From IMG/VR virus record IMGVR_UViG_2740892230_000009, positions 1-10,690 of that record: a DNA stretch of 10,690 nucleotides; one strand, given 5' to 3'. Source of the DNA: a virus. Lineage: Duplodnaviria; Heunggongvirae; Uroviricota; Caudoviricetes. The number at the start of each line of letters is the position of its first letter. Position 1 is the stretch's first letter. Made by a program: the position numbers and the translations under genes. Shown here piece after piece: positions 6,202 to 6,498 of the stretch. The notes beneath the pieces are model-generated. The model did no database searches. It was not told where the DNA came from and saw only the letters and a program-made list of their open reading frames with translations.

Positions 6202-6498
6202 TCAGAATTGCATATCAATTTGCTTAGAGTCCCCGGCGGCCACCGGGGATTTTTTCTTTGTGATTTCATCAAGCGCATACTTAAAAGCCCTGCTAATCGG
6301 ACTGATGTCTGATGCCATTCCGAAAGCACACAAGACCGAAGCAATAAATCTCCAGTCCGTTCTGCTTATCTTCGATTCATGACAGCCAATCATCTTTGCC
6401 AGACCGCGCTGGGTAAGCGTTGACAGGTTGATGAGTAAATCAGTTTCAGCGCGATCAATTTCTCGCTGTGATAGTTTGCTGTAACTTGTTTGTTCCAT
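6202..6498 (-). CDS. cII: CII-family transcriptional activator
   Basis: 98 aa; GLAKMIGCHESKISRTDWRF HTH region and C-terminal KQIDMQF parallel lambda CII (KSQISRWKRDW...EQIQMEF as I recall); located directly after cro. Confidence 0.8.
   Translation of the reverse strand: MEQTSYSKLSQREIDRAETDLLINLSTLTQRGLAKMIGCHESKISRTDWRFIASVLCAFGMASDISPISRAFKYALDEITKKKSPVAAGDSKQIDMQF
6229..6254 (+). terminator. Intrinsic terminator antisense to the 3' end of cII (OOP-like)
   Basis: TCCCCGG, 6-nt loop, CCGGGGA (6229-6248) followed by TTTTTT (6249-6254) on the + strand, inside the cII coding region on the opposite strand. Confidence 0.6.

Follow-up and report, generated by a model that had tools for sequence, protein, structure and literature searches.

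The hairpin and T-run inside the 3′ end of cII in the window (the whole stretch of DNA analysed, 10,690 nt) very probably terminate an antisense RNA of the OOP type. Judged by sequence comparison, we hold with high confidence that positions 6182-6256 of the plus strand form the body of a lambdoid OOP allele, and that 6230-6255 are its terminator tO. The window covers the immunity and replication region of a lambdoid phage in reverse orientation; over 84% of its length it is 99.8% identical to TL-2011a, a relative among the Stx phages. Its relevant features are as follows.

6182-6256, plus strand: body of the putative OOP-like antisense RNA, in position the counterpart of lambda OOP nt 3-77; its initial two bases, G and T in intact copies, lie inside the N-run
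6230-6255, plus strand: candidate intrinsic terminator tO of that RNA, from lambda tO homology, fold and terminator scan
6202-6498, minus strand: cII, 98 aa, the antisense target (Pfam Phage_CII, E=1.1e-31)
6172-6181: scaffold gap of 10 N, which replaces pO of the right-hand oop copy (-35, -10 and start site) and the T-run of a left-hand copy
6637-6864, minus strand: Cro-like HTH protein
6943-7650, plus strand: CI-type repressor
5827-6099, minus strand: 90-aa ORF between cII and the O-like gene, part of the TL-2011a module; no Pfam match
4877-5824, minus strand: O-like replication protein
2487-4880, minus strand: DnaB-like helicase, 797 aa

The hairpin in cII and the RNA that it would end

On the plus strand the hairpin reads TCCCCGG (6230-6236), a CGGCCA loop (6237-6242) and CCGGGGA (6243-6249), followed by TTTTTT (6250-6255). 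A terminator scan of the window ranked it first and called it on the plus strand only, with the stem lengthened by A-T/G-T pairs to 11 pairs (6226-6253); in the predicted fold the tO stem is likewise lengthened from 6226 by A-U/G-U pairs. On the minus strand the bases after the hairpin are CTCTAAGC, and the T-run is absent. An earlier reading of this DNA, made from the sequence only, had described a 7-bp GC-rich stem with TTTTTT within 6229-6258, acting as a terminator on the plus strand alone and lying inside cII on the minus strand, and the letters, the scan and the Pfam assignment of ORF 6202-6498 bear this out. It had also seen no credible plus-strand gene upstream, and the sole ORF there (6013-6312, TTG start) spans the N-run and overlaps opposite-strand genes. 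Its proposal that the hairpin ends an OOP-like antisense RNA is supported by a colinear match to lambda OOP in position, length, fold and cII overlap. The window has two more strong terminator-like hairpins, at 1763-1786 (minus) and at 9787-9808 (plus); the latter scores on both strands (9806-9789 on the minus) and lies directly 3′ of a small ORF, 9624-9788.

Lambda OOP is a 77-nt RNA that runs leftward from pO, ends at the tO hairpin and overlaps cII by 52 bases, the -10 sitting 8-13 nt from the RNA 5′ end (PMC5869508; PMC5488031). Positions 6182-6256 align with lambda pO/OOP without gaps, and 56/77 bases are identical when the G and T are restored from intact copies. The RNA would cross the cII stop codon (6202-6204) and overlap 52 nt of cII coding sequence (6205-6256) in addition to the stop, and its T-run falls at RNA positions 71-76, after a G+C hairpin whose helix is kept with compensatory changes. 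The plus-strand RNA is predicted to fold into two stem-loops with dG -28 kcal/mol (z -4.0; 0/200 shuffles equally stable), and the predicted folds of the lambda, imm21 and HK633 OOP regions have the same two-hairpin architecture. The predicted RNA resembles lambda OOP in being antisense to the cII 3′ end, in its 77-nt length and 52-nt overlap, in its two stem-loops and in a terminator within cII. It is unlike lambda OOP in 21 substitutions, in a terminator stem with two compensatory pair changes and another loop, in a 5′ stem-loop that pairs in a shifted register, and in that the window's promoter is lost in the scaffold gap.

Rfam gave no OOP family match, either at gathering thresholds over the whole window or at E<=10 over 5950-6550, and returned just sub-threshold matches to unrelated terminator-containing sRNAs. 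Since Rfam holds no OOP family, the OOP-like RNA has no curated model score.

Conservation of the hairpin, and readings without an antisense RNA

The antisense strand across the cII/c1 stop codon was taken from 18 phages, ranging from 100% to ~35% CII identity. CATAAT or TATAAT is present in lambda, HK633, P27, 2G7b, imm21, phage 86, BP-4795, TL-2011a, Dewey, Oslo, HK620, ST64T, Sf101, P22 and Hafnia phage Pocitis76, and the same 15 phages have a hairpin with T-run in the cII 3′ end, ~55-75 nt past the -10. Counted by lineage, an antisense hairpin and T-run occupy the equivalent site in 13, with differing hairpin sequences. Inspection by eye of Pseudomonas phage D3 (L097) and Klebsiella phage ST13-OXA48phi12.5 (L098) revealed no obvious -10 or hairpin with T-run; this small sample of two sequences suggests that OOP is limited to the enterobacterial lambda/P22 group.

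Pairing in the terminator helix reaches 97.2% over 12 distinct lambda-group sequences, compared with 39-61% in slid registers. The lambda lineage and that of the window differ in two adjacent stem pairs (C-G to U-A and G-C to C-G), and these compensatory changes alter the encoded peptide, RPAATER in the lambda lineage and SPVAAGD in the window's. In this comparison it is the pairing of the stem that is conserved, and not the amino acids of CII. The two pairs probably represent a single ancestral event, and the covariation is statistically modest, supportive rather than decisive. It was tested on the terminator helix only because the registers of the 5′ stem-loop differ between the lambda allele and the window's.

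Two readings would do without an antisense RNA. The hairpin could be a structure of the sense cII mRNA only, for example a stability or processing element; the earlier reading had itself named this option, and the G-C core of the hairpin does fold on the sense strand too. The sense fold is unremarkable, however (z -1.3; 25/200 shuffles equally stable), and in every lineage the T-run lies 3′ of the hairpin on the antisense strand only, where a conserved -10 also stands at a fixed distance upstream. Furthermore, the homologs in lambda and P22 have been shown to exist as RNAs, and we consider a purely sense-strand role extremely improbable. The other reading makes the hairpin and T-run a by-product of the CII C-terminal peptide Lys-Lys-Lys-Ser-Pro-Val-Ala-Ala-Gly, or a matter of chance. 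The T-run does complement AAA lysine codons, and CII activity needs the C-terminal 20 residues (PMC5869508). Against this, only ~3% of synonymous recodings of the peptide produce any terminator-like site, weaker ones included, and 0.2-0.5% attain the dG of -18.3 that the native antisense fold has. For lambda and P22 the share as stable as the native sequence is 0.5-3%; there the energy comparison alone is meaningful, as a strict perfect-stem criterion misses both native terminators, which have a G-U pair or a bulge. The RPAATER and SPVAAGD alleles, moreover, keep the pairing by double changes. As for chance, the real window has two sites that combine a stem of 7 perfect pairs, five or more of them G-C, with six or more T among the next 7 bases; the same criterion found sites in 2/300 dinucleotide shuffles with both strands counted, a mean of 0.007 per shuffle and hence an expectation of 0.007 per window. 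On these sequence comparisons the hairpin is not dictated by the CII peptide alone, and an origin as by-product or accident is scarcely credible.

The promoter pO and the scaffold joins

Of the conserved 33-bp pO/oop-5′ motif published for lambdoid phages (PMC3349717), the window itself retains just the final 13 bases (6182-6194); the N10 join has replaced the others. Intact copies of the window's allele supply the missing part. Phage 86 and BP-4795 read ...GTCATAATGACTCCTGT followed directly by GGATTGATCC across the start of the RNA body; BP-4795 has the full lambda TTGAGT-17-CATAAT upstream, and phage 86 the -10 only. Three IMG/VR loci (L006, L016 and L027) are 99.9-100% identical to the window over 6182-7700 and carry the lambda TTGAGT-17-CATAAT; in L006 and L016 the identity is 100%, uninterrupted, and the region adjoins a lambda-type O gene. 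These three loci and BP-4795 all have the arrangement TTGAGT-17-CATAAT-7-G, so pO is identical to that of lambda in intact copies. More broadly, the anchor occurs in 79 IMG/VR relatives, and every one of them has CATAAT(G/T)A(C/A)(T/C)CCTGT directly upstream of it, next to four different replication modules. The absence of pO is a property of the assembly and not of the allele.

The sequence-only reading had suggested resolving the N-run and seeking a sigma-70 promoter 60-120 nt upstream, and a lambda-type pO is indeed present in the uninterrupted copies with 100% identity. It had also held that the N-run at 6172-6181 breaks the promoter region. The N-run is there, but the sequence to its left is not the upstream region of the RNA, because the N-run joins two phage variants.

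As a separate observation, the gene that follows cII, be it O, an orf48-like gene or the 90-aa ORF, has its start codon at the pO -10 (CATAAT or TATAAT), which adjoins the ribosome-binding site of that gene. This -10 is kept over at least four unrelated replication modules (loci L006-L085 and L086-L096), and the module boundary therefore lies just upstream of the -10.

To the left of the gap stands a second oop copy, which the sequence-only reading had overlooked, with these features.

~6111-6171, plus strand: second oop copy, lambda/TL-2011a type, 100% identical to TL-2011a; start inferred from the -10
6099-6104, plus strand: TATAAT, candidate -10 of the left-hand copy, read from the sequence; its position equals that of CATAAT in lambda and other lineages
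6122-6171, minus strand: orphan cII 3′ fragment, TL-2011a type, with stop TAA at 6122-6124, encoding ...PAATERSEQIQMEF*

The left-hand copy, GTTCAGAACGCTCGGTTGCCGCCGGGCGTT, has the core stem CGCTCGG (6150-6156)/CCGGGCG (6163-6169), after which the N-run cuts it off behind two T; TL-2011a continues as TTTTATT into cII. Its terminator half is identical to that of lambda, and the orphan fragment duplicates the end of the real cII. The left TATAAT overlaps the start codon (6097-6099) of the opposite-strand 90-aa ORF, whose ribosome-binding site also overlaps this -10, and is preceded by a weak -35, TGGATT (6076-6081). A consensus promoter scan found no plus-strand promoter near 6000-6180; it missed the left TATAAT because the -35 is too weak.

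The window contains five N10 runs, at 1038-1047, 1333-1342, 1652-1661, 2215-2224 and 6172-6181. Blocks 670-1037, 2225-6171 and 6267-10690 are 100% identical to TL-2011a, and blocks 821-1037, 1343-1651 and 1746-2214 match BP-4795. All switches between blocks fall at N10 runs, and the reference coordinates overlap over the joins. At the 6172 gap region the window has 80 extra bases relative to TL-2011a, and TL-2011a 5796-5808 are used twice, on either side of 6172-6181. The start of the right block falls within the 33-bp motif, which is common to many prophages, and contig ends in such common sequence are a typical break point. The window is thus a chimeric scaffold built from two or more related prophage variants, and the tandem is most likely an assembly artefact. 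On the simplest reading a scaffolder strung together two variants sharing the immunity region, one pairing a DnaB-type replication module with a lambda-type oop and the other a lambda-type O/P module with a phage-86-type oop.

The tandem might instead be genuine, left by illegitimate recombination between replication modules in a single phage that carries a diverged pair of oop/cII-3′ modules one after the other, with the N hiding ~10 real bases; a transcript from the left TATAAT would then pass the first terminator, and read-through would reach the hairpin at 6230-6255. Lambdoid phages are mosaic and the region is a known module boundary (PMC3349717), ten bases are enough to complete the left T-run, and both flanks are otherwise TL-2011a-like. 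However, the tandem oop junction is absent from 50,697 phage records, 5,426 complete E. coli genomes and 80 IMG/VR loci, and junction pattern scans allowing 0-30 nt between the flanks gave none in the viral and genome contig collections. That the sequence changes from TL-2011a-like to BP-4795-like or back at all five N10 runs, with overlap in the reference coordinates, that the right block starts in a motif shared among many prophages, and that there are up to five copies of the segment per genome also speak against a real tandem, and we regard it, read-through included, as very unlikely. There is a correspondingly slim chance that the tandem is real and the left promoter active, yielding either a short RNA or a ~145-nt chimeric antisense RNA ending at 6255. 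If true, the ~145-nt RNA would cover the cII 3′ end together with the orphan cII fragment. Scaffolded prophage regions in strains with several lambdoid prophages can yield false tandem features at 10-N joins.

Known relatives, proposed action and neighbouring genes

OOP has been under study since the 1970s. The element found here is already known and common, and the finding is correct but ordinary. Its significance as a discovery is small, with OOP long studied and its Stx-phage homologs catalogued, and the practical points concern annotation. Phage 86, PA28, SH2026Stx1 and many Stx1 phages carry the 148-nt segment 6182-6329 at 100% identity, and 1,366 of the 5,426 complete E. coli genomes have a match to segment 6182-6300, in 228 records at >=99% identity and in no more than five places per genome. 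Among the Stx and lambdoid OOPs (BP-4795, phage 86 and the 933W group), BP-4795 (AJ556162) and phage 86 show zero mismatches to the RNA body at 6182-6256, and the TL-2011a oop is identical to the left-hand copy; nothing biological sets the window apart from these, the sole difference being that two copies stand artificially in tandem in this scaffold. Hayes et al. (2012), whose alignment covered 23 phages, included phi 4795 (AJ556162) among the lambdoid oop loci (PMC3349717). Reviews record OOP-like sequences in the cII-O regions of Stx phages (PMC5488031, there citing Nejman-Falenczyk 2015), and the HK633 record is annotated 'similar to lambda oop mRNA'. The RefSeq lambda record has no oop feature in the cII-oop region; with this, and no Rfam model for OOP, the element routinely goes unannotated.

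The oop RNA of P22, antisense to c1, has been seen by RNA-seq as a 63-nt RNA that starts with GAUUGAUCCAG and ends in a T-run (PMC13397905). The same GAUUGAUCCAG is found exactly at 6183-6193 of the window. The two are alike in this 5′ end, in position relative to the cII homolog and in a terminator within the 3′ end of that homolog; the P22 RNA differs in being shorter, in an unrelated terminator hairpin sequence and in a different middle part.

From homology to lambda, we infer that the window's allele would be transcribed and would affect cII in an intact phage. A sigma-70 polymerase would use pO, whose -10 CATAAT lies over the start codon of the gene after cII. The RNA would start in the cII-O intergenic region, run antisense over the cII stop and 52 nt of coding sequence, and end at the hairpin and T-run as a molecule of ~77 nt with two stem-loops. 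As its lambda homolog does, it may then pair with the cII-O mRNA, and RNase III-dependent cleavage of the duplex would lower CII and favour lytic growth over lysogeny. As cited in PMC5869508, RNase III-dependent cleavage of the cII-O mRNA is a result for lambda only (Krinke and Wulff 1987, 1990). Lambda can grow without oop, the cleavage sites that have been published fall outside cII, and the physiological weight of the RNA is debated even there (PMC5869508). As assembled, the copy in the window has lost its promoter, the 10-N join setting a TL-2011a-type block, with its own lambda-type oop terminator, before a right block that starts 2 nt inside a phage-86/BP-4795-type oop; that a terminator stands there without a promoter is due to the chimeric scaffolding of the record.

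The CII of the window is found at 100% protein identity in 16 IMG/VR loci. The gene is a hybrid, with 6182-6342 identical to phage 86 and everything from 6267 onward identical to TL-2011a; this crossover is natural and not an assembly product, since L006 and L016 carry the hybrid uninterrupted. In the DnaB-like helicase, LAGLIDADG and homing-endonuclease Pfam matches at about residues 393-454, between the N- and C-terminal helicase domains, suggest an intein-like insertion. Positions 5267-5409 in the O-like gene hold ~12-nt repeats (CATGTGCGG-type, with 12-nt spacing) and a 50-nt repeat, encoding His/Ala-rich repeats; by analogy with lambda O they could be origin iterons. The immunity-side early region also contains a eukaryotic-type Ser/Thr protein kinase gene (8575-9621, plus strand; Pfam Pkinase, E=2e-46), which is annotated as stk in TL-2011a and phage 86.
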